Shown here: positions 1,080 to 57,141 of the stretch, piece after piece
Layout of the letters: the number at the start of each line of letters is the position of its first letter
How positions within the stretch are numbered: position 1 is the first letter of the stretch
Origin: Gammaproteobacteria bacterium
GTDB lineage: Bacteria > Pseudomonadota > Gammaproteobacteria > SURF-13
DNA length: 57,141 nt
Direction of reading: 5' to 3'
Assembly (NCBI GenBank): GCA_038924245.1
Contig: JBCKVB010000004.1
Span: forward strand, 1-57,141
Position numbers and translations under genes: made by a program
The notes under the pieces: generated by a model
The model's database searches: none
Told to the model about the DNA's origin: nothing
What the model saw: only the letters and a program-made list of their open reading frames with translations

Positions 1080-2993
1080 TTAATGCTCACTCGCCGCGCC
1101 GCCGATCTTGCCTTCCGGCTTGGCAGGTGTTTCACCCGTGGCGCGGCGTCCGTCCGCCTTGGGCGGGGTGGGCTCGCTCTCCTGCGGCGGACGCGGCGGC
1201 CGGCCGGCCATGACGTCATTAATCTGCTGCGCATCGAGCGTCTCGTACTGGATGAGCGCCTCGGCCATGAGGTGCAGCTTGTCGAGGTTATCCGTGAGGA
1301 TTTTTCTGGCGCGCTGATAATTGCGATCCACGATGGAGCGGATTTCCCCGTCTATTGCGTGCGCGGTATCGTCCGACACCATCTTGTGCCGGGTCACGCT
1401 GTGACCCAGGAACACCTCGCCCTCCTCGTCGCTGTAGGTAAGTGGGCCGAGCTTCTCGGACAGGCCCCACTTGGTCACCATGTTGCGCGCGATTTCAGTG
1501 ATGCGCTGGATGTCGTTGGAAGCGCCCGTGGTCACCTTTTCCGCGCCGAAGATAATCTCCTCCGCGACACGGCCGCCAAACATGCCGCAGATCTGGCTCT
1601 CCAGGCGTTCCTTGCTGTAGCTGTAACGATCCTGTTCCGGGAGGAACATGGTCACGCCCAGCGCGCGCCCACGCGGGATGATGCTCACCTTATAGACCGG
1701 GTCGTGCGCGGGGACGGAAAGCCCCACAATCGCATGGCCGGCCTCGTGATAAGCGGTGAGCTTCTTTTCCTCGTCGCTAATCACCATGGAGCGGCGTTCC
1801 GTGCCCATCATGATCTTGTCCTTGGCCTTCTCGAAGTGCTCCATGCGCACCGTGCGATTGTTGCTGCGCGCGGCGAACAGGGCGGCCTCGTTCACCAGAT
1901 TGGCGAGGTCGGCGCCGGAAAAGCCCGGCGTGCCGCGCGCGATGATGGCCGGCTCGACGTTTTCATCCAGCGGCACCTTGCGCATGTGCACTTTCAGAAT
2001 TTGCTCGCGTCCGCGCACGTCCGGCAGCGGCACCACCACCTGGCGGTCGAAGCGGCCGGGGCGCAGCAACGCGGGATCCAACACGTCGGGACGGTTGGTG
2101 GCGGCGATCACGATCACTCCTTCGTTGCCCTCGAAGCCGTCCATCTCGACCAATAATTGATTCAGGGTCTGCTCGCGCTCGTCATGTCCGCCACCCAGCC
2201 CCGCGCCGCGATGACGGCCCACGGCGTCAATTTCATCTATGAAGATGATGCACGGCGCATGTTTTTTTGCCTGCTCGAACATGTCGCGCACGCGCGAGGC
2301 GCCCACGCCGACGAACATCTCGACGAAATCCGATCCGGAGATGGAAAAGAACGGCACCTTGGCCTCGCCCGCAATGGCCTTGGCGAGCAAGGTCTTGCCG
2401 GTGCCGGGATTGCCGATCATGAGCACGCCGCGCGGAATCCTGCCGCCCAGCTTCTGGAACTTGCCTGGATCGCGCAGGAATTCCACCAGTTCCGAAACCT
2501 CTTCCTTGGCCTCGTCCACGCCCGCGACATCGGCGAAGGTGATTTTGATCTGATCCTCGCCCACCATGCGCGCACGGCTCTTGCCGAACGAGAGCGCGCC
2601 GCGCGGGCCACCACCCTGCATCTGGCGCATGAAAAATATCCACACGCCGATGAGCAGCAGCATGGGGAACCAGGAGATGAAGAGTTGCATCAGCAGACCC
2701 TGCTGCTCGGGCGGGCGCGCGTCAATCTGCACGTTGTTTGTGAGCAGGTCGTTGATCAAACCGGGGTCATCGGGGCTATACGTGGTGAAGGTCTCGTTGT
2801 TTTGCATGATGCCGCGGATGGTGCGCCCTTCGATGGTCACCTTCTGTACCTTGCCCTCTTTCACGTCGGCGATGAACCGCGAGTACTCCAAGGGCTTGGC
2901 GGGCGTCTGACGCGGGCCAAAGTTGTTGAACACCGACATCAAGACGATGGCGATGACCACCCACAGAACCAGATTTTTTGCGATGTCGTTCAA
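1080..2993 (-). CDS. ftsH: ATP-dependent zinc metalloprotease FtsH
   Basis: 2 TM helices, Walker [25 protein letters not shown] zinc motif. Confidence 0.99.
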
Positions 2994-3056
2994 ATCCTGA
3001 TACCTCTTTAAATATTGCTATTAGCTTATCACAAATCAGCCTAAGCTGATTAGACT

Positions 3057-3680
3057 CTACCGGCCCCGAAAGTTTCGGGCCAGCACATACAATTCCGGGC
3101 TGCGCGCGCGCGAGGCCTTGGGTTTGCGCACCTTGACTTCCTTGAAGGATAGACGCAATTCCTTCATGATCGAGGTAAATCCCGCGCCTTGGAACAGCTT
3201 GAGCAATAAATCGCCGCCCGGCGCCAGCACCTGCCGCGCGAATTCGAGCGCCAGTTCGGCCAGATACATGCCGCGCGGCTGATCCACGGACTTCATCCCG
3301 CTGATATTGGGGGACATGTCCGACATTACAAGGTGTATCGGCGCACCCTTCAAGTCCTGTAGTAATTTGTCCAGCGTCCCGGCCTCGGTAAAGTCGGCCT
3401 GCATGAACTCCACGCCCGGCAACGGTTCCATGGGCAGGAGATCGAGCGCAATCACTCGTCCGCGCGGGCCGGCCAATTTGGCCGCCTCCTGCGCCCAGCC
3501 GCCCGGCGTGCTGCCCAGGTCCACCACGGTCATGCCCGGCTTCAGAATCCGGTCGCGCGCGTTGATCTCTTGCAGCTTGAAGACGGCGCGCGAGCGGTAG
3601 CCCTTTTGCTGGGCTTCTTTTACGTAAGGGTCGGTGAAGTGCTCGCGCAGCCAGCGCTGGCTGCTTTTACTGCGCGCCAT
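3057..3680 (-). CDS. rlmE: 23S rRNA Um2552 methyltransferase RlmE
   Basis: MARSKSSQRWLREH start, YRSRAVFKL, VDLGSTPGGW, SDMSPN; canonical position upstream of ftsH; start moved from 3707. Confidence 0.97.
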   Translation of the reverse strand: MARSKSSQRWLREHFTDPYVKEAQQKGYRSRAVFKLQEINARDRILKPGMTVVDLGSTPGGWAQEAAKLAGPRGRVIALDLLPMEPLPGVEFMQADFTEAGTLDKLLQDLKGAPIHLVMSDMSPNISGMKSVDQPRGMYLAELALEFARQVLAPGGDLLLKLFQGAGFTSIMKELRLSFKEVKVRKPKASRARSPELYVLARNFRGR

Positions 3681-3683
3681 AAG

Positions 3684-3718
3684 TAAGTGACAAGTGGCAA
3701 GTGGCAAGTAGCAAGTGG
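3684..3718. repeat. Heptamer tandem repeat (CAAGTGG)x5, imperfect
   Basis: taagtga caagtgg caagtgg caagtag caagtgg. Confidence 0.9.
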
Positions 3719-3728
3719 GACGTGACGG

Positions 3729-4193
3729 CTATGATGAAGCCGGATTTTTCCTACCCAGCCCAAACGCCACCAACGCCAGTCCGGATAGGCTGGTTGCGAG
3801 GTACAACAACGCCGAGATGCCGTGTAGCATGCTAAAGCGCGCGGCCTCCGGCGTGCCGGGCGTAAAGCCCTGCGGGCTGGCCATTTTGAGCCCCTGCATC
3901 AGGGGTTGCAGCACAAATTCCATGGCCACGATCAGCACCAGCATCGCCACCAGCGCCCAGACCTGCCAGTGACGCCGCCACCCAGCGCCGGTTTGATAAA
4001 TCACCGAGGCCAGCAGTAGCGCGCCGCAAACCAGGCCGAGGGTGTTCACCGCCGTGAACATCACGCCCGCGATGCCGCCCGCGACAAAACGTTCAAAGAT
4101 GACGCTGAACAGAACCGGCACGGCGATATAACCTATCGCCCACAGCGCGCCCACCCAGAGGGTGAGCAGGATGCGTTGTCCGACGTTGACCAT
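3729..4193 (-). CDS. DUF4149-like inner membrane protein
   Basis: Four hydrophobic segments, RFSMLHGIS motif, typical position downstream of greA. Confidence 0.75.
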   Translation of the reverse strand: MVNVGQRILLTLWVGALWAIGYIAVPVLFSVIFERFVAGGIAGVMFTAVNTLGLVCGALLLASVIYQTGAGWRRHWQVWALVAMLVLIVAMEFVLQPLMQGLKMASPQGFTPGTPEAARFSMLHGISALLYLATSLSGLALVAFGLGRKNPASS

Positions 4194-4194
4194 G

Positions 4195-4670
4195 TTATGC
4201 ATAACGCACGGCGGTGATTTCATATTCCTTCACCCCGCCCGGCGTCTGCACCGCCGCGATGTCGCCTTCCTCCTTGCTGATCAGCGCGCGCGCGATGGGC
4301 GAGCTGATGGAGATCATGCCCTGCTTGATGTCCGCCTCGTCGTCGCCCACGATCTGGTAGGTCACTTTGTCGCCGGTCTCTTCGCTGATCAGGTCCACGG
4401 TCGCGCCGAACACCACCCGGCCGTGCGCGTTGAGCCTGGAAACGTCTATGATTTCGGCGTTGCCGAGCTTGCCTTCAATCTCGGCGATGCGGCCTTCGAT
4501 GAAGCTCTGCTGCTCCTTGGCGGCGTGATATTCGGCGTTTTCCTTCAGATCGCCGTGCGCGCGCGCCTCGGTGATGGCGGTGATGACGCGCGGACGCGCC
4601 ACGGTTTTCAATTCATGCAATTCGTCGCGCAGTTTTTGCGCGCCTTTAACCGTGATCGGCACCATGTTGC

Positions 4671-4674
<4 letters not shown>
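4195..4674 (-). CDS. greA: Transcription elongation factor GreA
   Basis: [27 protein letters not shown]. Confidence 0.98.
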
Positions 4675-7873
<3,199 letters not shown>

Positions 7874-7895
<22 letters not shown>

Positions 7896-9028
7896 GACTT
7901 CATAAGCTGAATAAATTTATCGAACAAATAATGCACATCATGCGGACCGGGGCAGTCTTCCGGATGGCCCTGGAAGCTGAACGCCGGGCAATCGGTGCGC
8001 TCCACGCCCTGCAGCGAACCGTCAAACAGCGAGCGATGCGTGGCGCGCAAGTTTTTCGGCAGCGTCGTCTCGTCCACCGCAAAACCGTGATTCTGGCTGG
8101 TAATCAGCACGCGTCCGCCGGAGAGCTCCTGCACCGGATGGTTGGCGCCGTGGTGGCCGAACTTCATCTTGACCGTCCTGGCGCCGCTCGCCAACCCCAG
8201 CAGTTGATGGCCCAGACAGATGCCGAATACCGGCACGCGCGCCTGCAAAATCTCGCGTATCGCCGTGATGGCGTAATCACACGGCTCCGGGTCGCCGGGG
8301 CCGTTGGAGAGAAATACGCCATCGGGCTTGAGCGCCAGCGCCTCCTGCGCGGGCGTCCTGGCGGGCAGCACCGTGACCCGGCAGCCGCGATCCGCCAGGC
8401 GGTTTAAAATGCCGCGCTTGATGCCGTAATCATACGCCGCCACGTGCCAGGGGAGTTCATCCGCCGCGCGGGGCGCGGGCACGCCCTGCTCCAGCGTCCA
8501 ACTGCCCTGCCGCCACTCATATTGTTTAGATGTGGTGACTTCCTGAGCCAAGTCCATGCCCTTGAGTCCGGGGAAGTCACGCGCCGCCTTGAGCGCTGCG
8601 GCCTCATTGATGTTATCGCCCGCCACGATGCAGCCATTCTGCGCACCCTTTTCGCGCAAAATCCTGGTCAACCTGCGCGTGTCTATCCCGGCTATCGCCA
8701 CCACGCGCTGCTGTTGCAGATACTCCGCCAGGCTTAGCTCGGCGCGCCAGTTGCTGGTGGTCAGGGACAAGTCGCGGATCACCAGGCCCGTGGCCCACAC
8801 CTTGTTCGCGTTGGCGTCGGCGCGGTTCACCCCCACGTTACCGATGTGCGGAGTGGTGAAGGTGACGATCTGCTTATAATAGGAAGGGTCGGTGAGGATT
8901 TCCTGATAGCCGGTGATCGCGGTATTAAATACCACCTCGCCCACGGCCTGCCCCGCCACGCCGACGGACTCGCCCCAAAACAGGCTCCCATCTTGCAGCG
9001 CTAACAGGGCAGGCTTGCGCGCACTCAT
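7874..9028 (-). CDS. carA: Carbamoyl-phosphate synthase small chain
   Basis: [28 protein letters not shown] (catalytic Cys), FQGHPE. Confidence 0.98.
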
Positions 9029-54986: not shown

Positions 54987-55181
54987 ATGCCCCCGACAAA
55001 AACCGCCACCTTAAATCTGCGCATTGACCCGATACTGAAGGGGGCGGCGCAAGGGGCCGCCCTGCGCGAACAGCGCAGTGTCGCCAACCTGATTGAGGTA
55101 CTGATTCGAAAGCATTGTGCGGAGGTGGGCATCCCCATCCCGGAACAGCGATCCTTATTCAGGGAGGACGATGATGAATGA
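54987..55181 (+). CDS. Ribbon-helix-helix (Arc/CopG-like) DNA-binding protein
   Basis: TATLNLRIDP beta strand, RSVANLIEVLI helix. Confidence 0.75.
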   Translation: MPPTKTATLNLRIDPILKGAAQGAALREQRSVANLIEVLIRKHCAEVGIPIPEQRSLFREDDDE

Positions 55182-55428
55182 GAAGACTCTGCGCGCCTTG
55201 GTGGATGCGGGCGCTGTACGGCGCATCCGCATCATCGCTAATGGCGCCCGTTTCCACATAGAGGCCGATACCCCGACGGGTTCCATTACGGCCTTCACCC
55301 TCAAGGGCACCGTCAAGACCTGGGGTTCACTGGATGCCGCCGCCAAGTGGGTGCGTTCACTCGGCATCGGCACGGCGCAGCTCGATGTGGCCAAGTGGCA
55401 GCCGGAACAGAAGGGCTTGAGACTGTAA
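55174..55428 (+). CDS. Small mobile-element protein resembling RK2 ParC-like family
   Basis: TLRALVDAGAVR...WGSLDAAAKWVRSLGI pattern; GGAGG SD; overlaps RHH stop. Confidence 0.55.
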   Translation: MNEKTLRALVDAGAVRRIRIIANGARFHIEADTPTGSITAFTLKGTVKTWGSLDAAAKWVRSLGIGTAQLDVAKWQPEQKGLRL

Positions 55429-55569
55429 TGATCCGGCGATCCATTGATGGCCCCGGCATGAAGTATACCGGGGGCCACATCCGTTTTCTCCGTATCCAGC
55501 CGGGCGCGCCCGGAGAGATAAATCTGGGGCACTGGGAATCAATAGTAACCCCGCCTTAACGTAGAACTA

Positions 55570-55689
55570 ACCGGCGGCGGCAACCGGGCTACCGCTCTGT
55601 CCTTGTAGGTTTGTCCGTATCGAGCCATTTCTGTTCTCCTTCGCCGCCCCCAGGTTCTTGGTTCTATTGAGGCGACAACTATTCTGACA
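55570..55689 (-). mobile_element. IS3-family left-end remnant
   Basis: TGTCAGAATAGTTGTCGCC end, AAGGAG SD, MARYGQTYKDRAVARLPP start at 55628. Confidence 0.6.
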
Positions 55690-55712
55690 CGGGGGGGTAT
55701 GACACGGGGGGA

Positions 55713-55742
55713 TTGACAAACTCATGCCTTGGGTAGTAGTCT
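55713..55742 (+). promoter_or_regulatory. sigma70 promoter feeding the riboswitch array
   Basis: TTGACA-N18-TAGTCT; predicted +1 near 55749, just before aptamer 1. Confidence 0.7.
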
Positions 55743-55750
55743 GTGTACGT

Positions 55751-55802
55751 AGCGCCGATTTGAGCTTCAGCTTGCGGGCGCTTTATAAATGCGGCTAAAG
55801 CG
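55751..55802 (+). ncRNA. SAM-II-type riboswitch aptamer 1
   Basis: P1 AGCGCC/GGCGCT, loop GATTTGA...TTGC, linker ATAAAT, 3' GCTAAAGCG. Confidence 0.8.
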
Positions 55803-55806
55803 GATC

Positions 55807-55843
55807 AAACCCGTTCTAGCGCGCAAGCCGGACCGGGTTTTTT
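55807..55843 (+). terminator. Intrinsic terminator after aptamer 1
   Basis: AAACCCG...CGGGTTT stem followed by T6. Confidence 0.7.
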
Positions 55844-55856
55844 GTTGTCTGTAGTG

Positions 55857-55909
55857 TCGCCGATTTAACGCACAACTTGCGGGGCGAATCATAAATACCG
55901 CTAAAGCGT
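55857..55909 (+). ncRNA. SAM-II-type riboswitch aptamer 2
   Basis: P1 TCGCC/GGCGA, GATTTAA, TTGCGG pairs with CCGC(T)AA, ACGC pairs with GCGT. Confidence 0.82.
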
Positions 55910-55971
55910 CGCTCGCTTCTCCTCCCCCTGGAAGCCGGCCACGCCGGAAACGCAGGGGAAAGGAGTTTCAC

Positions 55972-56259
55972 ATGTCAAAGCTTGAAGTTGGTGACATTTG
56001 TGTTACGCAAAACAATAGGATGAGTCTGCTCAACAACGGCCTGTTGGTAGAGATTATTGCGATCTGTTCGATCTCAGCTACCCCCTACCTAGTCCACCGC
56101 ATTGATGGGCACCGAGCCCCAGTGACGGAGCACCTTGGAGTTGTAAGTTTTTTCGCGTGTGACAATGCCTGGACGACAGCGCACCGGCTGCGCCGTGTTG
56201 ATCCCGGGGACACTCCCAGTTACGCGGAAGATGCTGAACGCTTGACCGAGCATGCCTGA
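55972..56259 (+). CDS. Small phage-like hypothetical protein ORF1
   Basis: AAGGAG SD; beta-rich N-terminus similar to ORF2. Confidence 0.75.
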
Positions 56260-56269
56260 TCGGAAGACC

Positions 56270-56423
56270 GGATGGGCATCGTCCACTTTTTGCTGATGTT
56301 GTTCAACGCCAGGTAAAACAGCTTGGTCACGGCTTCGTCGGTCGGAAACGAGGCGCGGGTTTTGATCACCTTGCGCAGACTCATGTTAATCGACTCGATG
56401 GCGTTGGTCGTATAGATTACCTT
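56270..56423 (-). mobile_element. IS256-family transposase internal fragment
   Basis: [40 protein letters not shown]. Confidence 0.85.
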
Positions 56424-56512
56424 AGTTAAACGTTTATGCGCGGTGAGGAAATAAACCGCGCAATGACATTGCAACGAGATGCACATGCATCGGAGTGGCC
56501 CACCTTACGGGC

Positions 56513-56571
56513 CGGGGGGATTTGATCCAGATTGCCGTCCCCGACGCATCGTCAAAACGGCTAAACAGGAG
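56513..56571 (+). ncRNA. SAM-II/SAM-V-type riboswitch aptamer 3 (translational)
   Basis: P1 CGGGGG/TCCCCG, GATTTGATCC, TTGCCG/CGGC(T)AA, TCC pairs with GGA of SD CAGGAG. Confidence 0.75.
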
Positions 56572-56578
56572 ACTAGCA

Positions 56579-56899
56579 ATGTCATTACTCAAACCTGGCA
56601 CACTCTGTGTCATCGTTGGTGGCTGCCCAGAAAATATTGGCCTCATCGTCGAAGTTCTTGCCCACCTCGGGCCACGCCCTCCCCGTGCTGACGCGTACAG
56701 CATACGAACCTCCAGTGGCCGGCCTTTTCCTCAGCTATGGGGCCTAGGCGGCCGCCTTGAACGCGGCTACACCAATGAGGCCATTACGGATCGGCACAAA
56801 CTTGCCCCCCTGGTTGATTCCAAGGATGAGTCCGAAGTGCGAAGCCGCGCCGTAAAGCGTGTGCCGGGCAGAAAGCGCGAACTGGAGACCTGCCACTAA
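56579..56899 (+). CDS. Small phage-like hypothetical protein ORF2 (paralogue of ORF1)
   Basis: MSLLKPGTLCVIVGGCPENIGLIVEV; SD AGGAG 7 nt upstream. Confidence 0.78.
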   Translation: MSLLKPGTLCVIVGGCPENIGLIVEVLAHLGPRPPRADAYSIRTSSGRPFPQLWGLGGRLERGYTNEAITDRHKLAPLVDSKDESEVRSRAVKRVPGRKRELETCH

Positions 56900-56982
56900 G
56901 TGACCCGGGGCAGCACCACCGGCCACTAACTTTTCAGAATATACGAATACGGCTTGATCCACCGCCCTCGCGGGGAACGGAT

Positions 56983-57039
56983 CGGGGGGATTTGATCCAG
57001 ATTGCCGCCCCGACACATCGTCAAACGGCTAAATAGGAG
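56983..57039 (+). ncRNA. SAM-II/SAM-V-type riboswitch aptamer 4 (translational)
   Basis: Near-copy of aptamer 3: CGGGG/CCCCG, TTGCCG/CGGC(T)AA, SD TAGGAG. Confidence 0.75.
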
Positions 57040-57045
57040 AACGAA

Positions 57046-57141
57046 ATGTCGTACACAAATGAAGAAGTAATTAGTGCACTTATCCCGCACCCCCGGGGGA
57101 TTCAGGCTCTTCGGGAGGCGCTGCGCATCCAGCCGGAGTAT
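57046..57141 (+). CDS. Hypothetical ORF3, truncated by window end
   Basis: MSYTNEEVISALIPHPRGIQALREALRIQPEY; SD 6 nt upstream. Confidence 0.65.
   Translation, partial: MSYTNEEVISALIPHPRGIQALREALRIQPEY

Follow-up and report, generated by a model that had tools for sequence, protein, structure and literature searches.

The question raised by the locus described here is why ORF1, a small open reading frame (ORF) near one end of a gammaproteobacterial contig, stands behind a leader that carries two aptamers and two different expression platforms. The stretch analysed, called the window in this text, is the whole contig C4 (57,141 bp) of a metagenome-assembled genome (MAG; G000, 1.38 Mb, 60% GC). 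Reading of positions 55400-57141 gave, in this order, a promoter, aptamer 1, a terminator with a run of six T, aptamer 2, a hairpin that buries the Shine-Dalgarno (SD) sequence, and ORF1. An initial annotation of this DNA had listed the same promoter, aptamers, terminator and SD hairpin, all of which were found in place, and the architecture that it proposed, an aptamer with a terminator followed by an aptamer with an SD-sequestering hairpin, was borne out, with both aptamers belonging to the S-adenosylmethionine (SAM) class. We consider it likely that this region is a 'bi-mechanism' tandem SAM-II leader, which would switch the ORF1 operon off twice when SAM is plentiful.

Two SAM-II-type aptamers and a terminator

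The motif GAUUU...UUGC...GCUAAA is common to four copies in the window, namely aptamers 1 and 2 and two SAM-V-like copies farther downstream. The nucleotides of the binding pocket and triplex (the GAUUU third strand, UUGC and GCUAAA) are invariant in both leader aptamers and in all 50 type A aptamers of our alignment A3, an invariance that is partly by construction, as most of these sequences were gathered with patterns requiring those motifs. When A3 was scored on the pseudoknot formed by helices P1 and P2, 98.5% of the cells were paired, five of the P1 pairs (columns 4-8) having been pre-filtered for pairing, and compensatory changes occurred in six of the 12 pairs, in P1 as well as in P2. 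None of 500 shuffles was as good, and slid partners were only 40-52% paired; here as in all the statistics reported, the sequences are mutually related and were collected by patterns that fix parts of the aptamer, so that p-values are indicative only. Among the unfiltered pairs, covariation was found in the closing pair of columns 3-38 (AU 32, GC 9, CG 1, UA 1) and in the P2 pairs 31-50 and 32-49. The hallmarks of SAM-V, a P3 mini-hairpin in L3 and an SD in or beside helix P2a after GCUAAA, were absent from aptamers 1 and 2, in which L3 consists of 10-11 unpaired nucleotides and no SD follows GCUAAAG. We conclude from these patterns that both segments are predicted SAM-II-type aptamers, that is, H-type pseudoknots of a subtype under-scored by the Rfam model.

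Genomes of the same class have the aptamer 1 type, together with a terminator, ahead of metK, metZ/metB, metN and metE, and the same aptamer types lie directly 5' of metK in G000 itself (C23, C33). Related subtypes were found before metK in C23, C33, L040, L054, L171, L193, L242 and L249, and in four of these loci (L171, L193, L242, L249) the subtype is that of aptamer 2, which is also present in identical or near-identical form in at least five ORF1 loci. Conservation of the pocket nucleotides, together with an association with metK that recurs in several loci, points to SAM as the probable ligand of both aptamers.

The coupling of aptamer 1 to the intrinsic terminator through mutually exclusive pairing, a classical antiterminator design, is well supported by the predicted pairings. 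The antiterminator excludes both P2 and the terminator stem and is present in the minimum free energy (MFE) structure of 55745-55850. In the window, the duplex between the aptamer tail and the 5' arm of the terminator has a free energy of -12.8 kcal/mol against -5.2 for the reversed control, and over 60 distinct aptamer-plus-T-run units from relatives and metagenomes the mean was -11.1 kcal/mol, with the reversed arm giving -5.7 (Wilcoxon p 1.4e-10). The terminator hairpin (-15.5 to -16.9 kcal/mol; arm in the aptamer 1-terminator unit, CCGUUCUAGC) recurs in the form AAACCCG...CGGGUUUUUU in G004, L049, L052, L053, L054, L165 and L184, and in some relatives its 3' arm literally copies the aptamer tail (GCUAAAGCGGG; L040). 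In the mechanism that we propose, transcription would start about 2 nt 5' of P1 of aptamer 1, near 55749. Without SAM, pairing of the tail GGCUAAAGCGG to the terminator's 5' half would let RNA polymerase read through, while with SAM bound the tail would be locked in the P2 triplex pseudoknot, the terminator at 55807-43 would form and transcription would stop.

The TTGAC of the predicted promoter is kept in position, 40-44 nt 5' of the aptamer GATTT, in 29 of 35 distinct tandem leaders. As an observation apart, a direct repeat (TGACACGGGGGG, 55685-55711, + strand) abuts the -35 box in two copies 15 nt apart and is present in one copy in L047; it may serve as an operator bound by a regulatory protein.

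Table 1. Predicted elements of the tandem leader and its first gene, in window coordinates.
Feature	Position	Strand	Description or basis
Promoter, sigma-70-type	55713-55742	+	-35 TTGACA 55713-18, 18-nt spacer, -10 TAGTCT 55737-42
Aptamer 1, SAM-II type	55751-55803	+	Rfam score; pair counts in alignment A3
Aptamer 1, P1			AGCGCC/GGCGCT, 55751-56 with 55777-82; triplex strand GAUUU 55757-61
Aptamer 1, P2 and L3			5' strand UUGCG 55772-76, 3' strand GCUAAA 55794-99; L3 55783-93; tail GCGG 55800-03
Antiterminator	55793-55821	+	Tail GGCUAAAGCGG (55793-803) with CCGUUCUAGCG (55811-21), 9/10 pairs, 7-nt loop
Intrinsic terminator	55807-55843	+	AAACCCG (55807-13)/CGGGUUU (55834-40), partly paired 20-nt interior, U6 55838-43
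Aptamer 2, SAM-II type	55857-55909	+	Aligned in A3 with 49 other type A aptamers, column for column
Aptamer 2, P1			UCGCC 55857-61 with GGCGA 55883-87; GAUUU 55862-66
Aptamer 2, P2			UUGCGG 55877-82 with CCGC-U-AA 55898-904; candidate P2a ACGC 55868-71 with GCGU 55906-09
Aptamer 2 expression platform	55910-55965	+	Folds, z scores of 40 leaders, compensatory change
Platform, 5' part			Linker 55910-18, anti-SD CUCCU 55919-23, C-run 55925-30, purine block GGAAG 55930-34
Platform, 3' part			Apical hairpin 55935-47 with invariant ACGC 55941-44, CAGGGG 55953-58, SD AGGAG 55961-65
ORF1	55972-56259	+	95 aa, family without assignment; first gene under the tandem leader

The SD hairpin and its coupling to aptamer 2

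The second platform pairs CUCCU/CCCCUG (55919-30) with CAGGGG/AGGAG (55953-65), 6 nt 5' of the ATG at 55972. In the window this hairpin has a free energy of -27.5 kcal/mol and a z score of -2.3 (-2.7 on a tighter segment), and the probability of an unpaired SD is 0.02-0.03. A metagenome scan for the aptamer subtype with GGGGCGA in P1 gave matches in at least 120 contigs, with 80 listed as loci, and among the loci listed 55 unique leaders combine the aptamer 2 subtype with an anti-SD/SD hairpin, while 20 have a terminator instead. Despite divergent sequences, the plan of the hairpin is kept, with CUCC, a C-run, the purine block, an apical hairpin of the tetraloop type, a G-run, an A-rich spacer and GGAG. 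Against dinucleotide shuffles, the median z score over 40 distinct leaders was -2.69, and 75% of them were below -2. Moreover, CUCCU/AGGAG of the window is replaced by CUCCA/UGGAG in L165 and L231, and both the apical ACGC and the GCGU of the aptamer tail are invariant in 18 aligned platforms. The hairpin was assessed on folds of the individual sequences and not by pair counts on the MAFFT alignment of the platforms (A4), which was out of structural register. Because its stability lies far beyond that of shuffled sequences and compensatory changes are present, the SD hairpin is, on these comparative grounds, a real and conserved expression platform of the aptamer 2 subtype. The segment 55926-55974 (+ strand) also gave a weak Rfam match to Mu-gpT-DE, another hairpin motif overlapping an SD (12.6 bits, gathering threshold 49), which is probably a mere likeness of form.

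An RNA that escapes termination would present aptamer 2 followed by a long imperfect hairpin with the SD paired in its outer 5-bp helix, and binding of SAM to aptamer 2 would presumably shift the RNA towards sequestration. While the nascent RNA is free of SAM, the 3' strand of P2/P2a (CCG...GCGU) and the linker would pair with the purine block and the apical ACGC; either this alternative helix would hold the anti-SD, or a single-stranded standby site of about 30 nt would stay beside the hairpin, and SAM would remove the option. When nascent transcripts were truncated before the G-run, the MFE structure paired at least 4 nt of the P2/P2a 3' strand with the apical region in 29 of 39 cases. The same folds enclose an anti-SD/purine-block helix, and they give way to the apical hairpin when the aptamer is blocked. 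For the truncated RNA of the window itself, the MFE structure is a variant of nearly equal kind, with the linker UCGCUC paired to the 3' strand of P1. Additionally, the purine block can pair with the anti-SD and linker, and judged by eye the complementary bases shift in step between groups (GCUUC/GAAGC in the window, GCCUC/GAGGC in L156 and L163, GGCUC/GAGCC in L248). The tail-apical pairing of the nascent folds would fit a kinetic switch. The SAM-free state leaves about 31 nt (55888-55918) single-stranded beside the hairpin, and by analogy with the proposal made for Sinorhizobium meliloti metA this stretch could be a ribosome standby site. How aptamer 2 would act as an OFF switch, and through which helix, is inferred in this way.

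Two other candidates for the switching element were discarded. The G-run of the aptamer (GCGGGGCGA), considered as an anti-anti-SD, failed its controls and was rejected as a general mechanism, and a functional role of the mini-hairpin AAGCG/CGCUU was ruled out by its lack of conservation (L053). The polarity with C on the 5' arm (164:93) is suggestive, yet phylogenetically confounded.

Several results weigh against a leader that is switched twice by SAM. At the gathering threshold, Rfam gave no match in the leader region: aptamer 1 matched SAM_alpha (SAM-II, RF00521) end to end with 32.7 bits (E 3.9e-05) and aptamer 2 matched SAM-II with only 12.6 bits, the threshold being 36. The promoter was not called by a consensus scan, as its -10 box has only three of six matches, and by itself the terminator is no more stable than shuffled sequences (z -1.2). 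P2a is modestly supported: in 49 pairs of the 3' part of L1 with the sequence 3' of GCUAAA, the helix length was 4.41 nt within sequences against 4.19 +/- 0.09 between them, a value reached by eight of 500 shuffles. In equilibrium folding, by a nearest-neighbour model that leaves out the pseudoknot, the triplex and the ribosome, the SD stays paired whether or not the aptamer is blocked, with no SAM-dependent change. The probability of an unpaired SD was 0.13 in the apo and 0.12 in the holo mimic at the median (0.026 and 0.022 in the window), and opening the stretch from SD to AUG costs 6.6 and 6.4 kcal/mol, respectively, in the window. For the 40 leaders the median cost was 6.6 against 7.4 kcal/mol, with a rise of at least 2 kcal/mol in 11 of them. 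Besides, complementarity of the 5' arm of the platform to the aptamer core equals that of the reversed control (6.55 and 6.58), the aptamer G-run pairs with the platform in only five of 39 truncated folds, and most genes downstream of these switches have no known link to SAM.

Given that aptamer 2 and the SD are thermodynamically uncoupled in the folds of the window, that this aptamer has an Rfam score of only 12.6 bits and that freeing the SD costs about 6.5 kcal/mol in either state, it could be argued that only aptamer 1 switches; aptamer 2 would then be a duplicated relic or be kept for another reason, and the hairpin, blind to SAM, would act as a constitutive damper of translation, a thermometer, or a site for a protein or RNase III. 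We nevertheless regard this as unlikely. Aptamer 2 and its hairpin occur together in those 55 unique leaders among the loci listed, often alone before a gene, metK included, and its pocket motifs GAUUU, UUGC and GCUAAA are invariant. It does not resemble a relic, because it is near-identical over ORF1 loci whose proteins share only about 60% identity. The invariance of the tail GCGU and the apical ACGC, together with their region pairing in most of the nascent folds, also speaks against this reading.

Almost no credence is given to the possibility that these repeats and hairpins arose by chance in GC-rich intergenic DNA and lack any regulatory role. It could draw on the uncalled promoter and on the MFE of the whole leader, which is no better than that of shuffles (z -1.2) and is dominated by spurious long-range pairs. 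It is refuted by the covariation, the statistics of the antiterminator, the recurrence in more than 100 related metagenome copies with promoter, terminator and hairpin kept in position, and the association with metK.

Recurrence of the leader and the genes behind it

Over all loci, 35 distinct tandem units were found, of which 19 have the order A1, T-run, A2, one is an A2 unit without a T-run, and 15 have the order A1, T-run, type B. The same promoter, aptamer 1, terminator, aptamer 2 and hairpin stand ahead of ORF1 in L047, L049-51, L052 and L053, and in these loci aptamer 2 and its hairpin are almost identical while the ORF1 proteins are only 53-79% identical. Overall, members of the ORF1 family behind the tandem leader were found in the window, L047, L049-53, L165, L184, L220 and L231, the last four being more diverged; in L046 and L048, ORF1 follows a single SAM-V-like aptamer with an adjacent SD. 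The tandem leader also precedes metK in L171 and L249, and in L054 with a second aptamer of type B (SAM-V-like), and aptamer 2 plus hairpin is often the sole element before a gene, including metK (L193, L242). Since the tandem leader stands before metK elsewhere, the double gate is, as far as its distribution indicates, a generic and portable leader and not one tailored to ORF1.

The subtype with GGGGCGA in P1 was detected in only two of 401 sampled genomes of the class, G000 and one genome of the same family, and a pattern search found the aptamer signature absent from three genomes of the same genus, loose patterns being noisy in AT-rich genomes. Because same-genus genomes lack the signature and the subtype is this rare in the class, its distribution points to horizontal acquisition.

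ORF1 has seven homologues with 53-91% identity, always behind a SAM-II/V-type aptamer and usually in an operon of the form ORF1-ORF2-...-metK. No match to ORF1 was obtained in Pfam, PHROG, PADLOC or NCBIfam, and thus no toxin or defence family; a search with the ORF1 alignment gave no match in the genome contigs or the metagenome contigs, and the AlphaFold2 model was unusable (predicted local distance difference test, pLDDT, 43). For ORF2, no Pfam or defence family was found, and the sole match was a weak one to a PHROG of unknown function (E 0.0012). The suggestion of the initial annotation that the double gate serves a toxic or costly product finds no support here, as the same tandem leader drives metK and ORF1 matches no toxin or defence family.

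The conserved operon consists of ORF1, ORF2, a variable part and metK; it ends in metK in L046, L047 and L053, and in L053 five aptamers lie within 4.6 kb, one per cistron. Two SAM-V-like aptamers were likewise found in the window at 56507-56575 and 56976-57043 (+ strand), directly 5' of ORF2 (56579-56899) and of a TPR ORF (57046 onwards). Both have the P3 mini-hairpin in L3 and an SD right after GCUAAA, score 21.4 and 33.3 bits against Rfam SAM_V (gathering threshold 41), and covary by eye in P1, P2 and P3 over about 30 relatives. Between ORF1 and the first of them lies, on the - strand (56220-56486), an 88-aa C-terminal fragment of a Mutator/IS256-type transposase (PF00872, E 4.9e-10), and window positions 56425-56520 are 85% identical to the leader of metK in C23.

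Because matching TPR repeats are found at both contig ends, the operon probably runs from the end of C4 into C23 (L254). There, a type B aptamer (2559-2605) directly precedes an accessory metK (region 2620-8366), followed by genes for an AAA_5/MoxR-like ATPase (467 aa), a 155-aa ORF, a vWA-like DUF2201 protein (469 aa) and a divergent MAT-like protein (357 aa). In C33 (L256), a SAM-I/IV aptamer at 3114-3220 (- strand; 58.5 bits, gathering threshold 41.1) heads a DUF3293 gene, after which come a type B SAM-V-like aptamer (2572-2618, - strand) and a second accessory metK, so that two SAM classes share one operon. Altogether, G000 (about 1.4-1.7 Mb) has three full-length metK genes (C9:7567-8685, C23, C33) and one divergent MAT-like gene. 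The metK of C9 lacks a riboswitch and belongs to the gammaproteobacterial type (81% to an uncultured gammaproteobacterium); for the riboswitch-controlled copies of C23 and C33, the nearest sequences come from betaproteobacterial MAGs (84% to one labelled Gallionella sp.). A further copy of the window's promoter, P1 and L1 (90% over 71 nt) lies at about 2250-2400 of C49 (- strand), with an insertion of about 45 nt in L3 before GCUAAA, long-loop-like, ahead of a gene for a TAT-signal protein; a similar TAT-signal protein is found behind the tandem leader in L149.

The loci L134-L251, with aptamer 2 plus hairpin, carry metK, an AAA_5 ATPase family of about 475 aa, a 140-aa family (MANHANIESPLVAGP...), a 64-aa family, ORF1- and ORF2-like genes and others, and of ten such cargo genes examined eight had no Pfam match, one was AAA_5 and one gave a weak TAT-signal match. 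A variant that has drifted to another ligand, such as S-adenosylhomocysteine, decarboxy-SAM, a polyamine or another SAM-related metabolite, would account for this non-metabolic cargo, most of it without a Pfam family or made up of AAA_5 ATPases, and for the sub-threshold Rfam scores of all SAM-II/V-type copies in G000; ligand drift also has a precedent in the SAM-I variants known to sense spermidine (PMC10853860). We judge such drift to be very unlikely here. The pseudoknot, triplex and P2a helix of SAM-II/V have been described (PMC6061858), and the full set of triplex and pocket nucleotides is retained without variation. The same subtypes repeatedly control metK and type A1 controls metE, metZ and metN, while the metK operon of C33, with its type B aptamer, is headed by a SAM-I/IV aptamer above the gathering threshold, all of which favours SAM as the ligand.

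At a distance of 1.1 kb from the leader, and in divergent orientation to it, a gene for a Dcm-type methyltransferase heads a restriction-like operon, and methylase/AAA_5 or HATPase_c_3 genes adjoin L047 and L049. Just 5' of the leader (54987-55428, + strand), a small RHH/Arc-like ORF (weak RHH_5 and PHROG matches) and a small ORF with weak KorA/ParC-like matches were observed, which by these matches would fit a neighbourhood of mobile-element or plasmid type. A more speculative reading, to which we give rather little weight, is that the tandem leader is a portable, horizontally moving 'SAM-starvation alarm' module, often beside restriction or defence genes and with exchangeable cargo. If that were so, the cassettes under its control would be ORF1/ORF2, the TPR proteins, an extra beta-type MetK and the MoxR-vWA-MAT-like set; the module would respond to a collapsing SAM pool, as phage SAM lyases or MetK inhibitors, for instance, could cause, and not to the ordinary methionine economy, and ORF1 and ORF2 would be effectors or protectors of the SAM supply. 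In the same speculative vein, the hairpin platform of aptamer 2, with its invariant ACGC and purine block, may switch by a mechanism so far undescribed for SAM-II.

Taken together, these results describe a sizeable SAM-II subtype (those at least 120 metagenome contigs) that is invisible to Rfam models, and therefore genome annotation misses both the switches and their regulon. The cargo, comprising the ORF1/ORF2 family, TPR proteins and an extra metK with the MoxR/vWA/MAT-like cassette, appears to be undescribed; ORF1/ORF2, the extra metK and that cassette point to SAM-regulated functions beyond classical methionine metabolism.

Relation to known SAM riboswitches

The reference family for both aptamers is the SAM-II riboswitch (RF00521), reportedly described by Corbino in 2005 and with a structure that is said to have been reported by Gilbert in 2008. 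The window shares with it the H-type pseudoknot, the GAUUU third strand, a P2 built from UUGC and GC-U-AA, and the control of methionine and SAM genes; it differs in its sub-threshold scores, in the origin of the subtype from gamma- and betaproteobacterial metagenomes, and in a cargo gene, ORF1, that is itself no methionine or SAM gene.

The metA switch of S. meliloti, a SAM-II riboswitch that controls translation at a distance and for which a standby site was proposed (Scheuer et al., 2022; PMC9373788), resembles the model proposed for the window, in which a SAM-II aptamer would act on a start codon tens of nucleotides downstream. In metA the SD is inside the aptamer, whereas in the window it lies in the downstream hairpin and the aptamer tail has no SD.

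In Pelagibacter ubique, a SAM-II aptamer with a terminator is followed by a translational SAM aptamer (Poiata et al., 2009; PMC11508383; PMC9481103). The initial annotation had likened the leader to this SAM-II/SAM-V tandem, an apt comparison for the logic of control, although both leader aptamers are of SAM-II type and the SAM-V-like copies lie farther downstream. The Pelagibacter logic itself reappears in relatives of the locus as aptamer 1, terminator and type B aptamer (G004, L054 and 13 more). The second aptamer of the window is SAM-II-like, without P3 in L3, and its SD is 55 nt downstream in a separate hairpin and not in P2a.

The closest counterpart is found in the survey of Sherlock et al. 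(2022; RNA Biol 19:1059; PMC9481103), in which 149 SAM-II/SAM-V tandems and 44 SAM-II doublets were reported and mixed platforms were termed 'bi-mechanism'. As in the window, those doublets have two SAM-II aptamers with the terminator first; their second aptamer exerts anti-ribosome binding site (anti-RBS) control, as is proposed here for aptamer 2. The terminator-then-RBS SAM-II doublet is therefore already described and, because such doublets are published, the architecture of the window adds little; its novelty is the controlled gene set only. The 44 doublets are listed there, and the platform type of the window is not described in detail (PMC9481103): its second platform is a hairpin of about 47 nt placed about 10 nt past the aptamer, with the invariant apical ACGC motif and the purine block, both of its aptamers score below the Rfam threshold, and its cargo is an operon of small proteins without a known family. 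Simple alternative pairing does not account for a coupling between this conserved, covarying SD hairpin and its aptamer, and the platform offers a tractable system for the study of co-transcriptional folding and standby sites.

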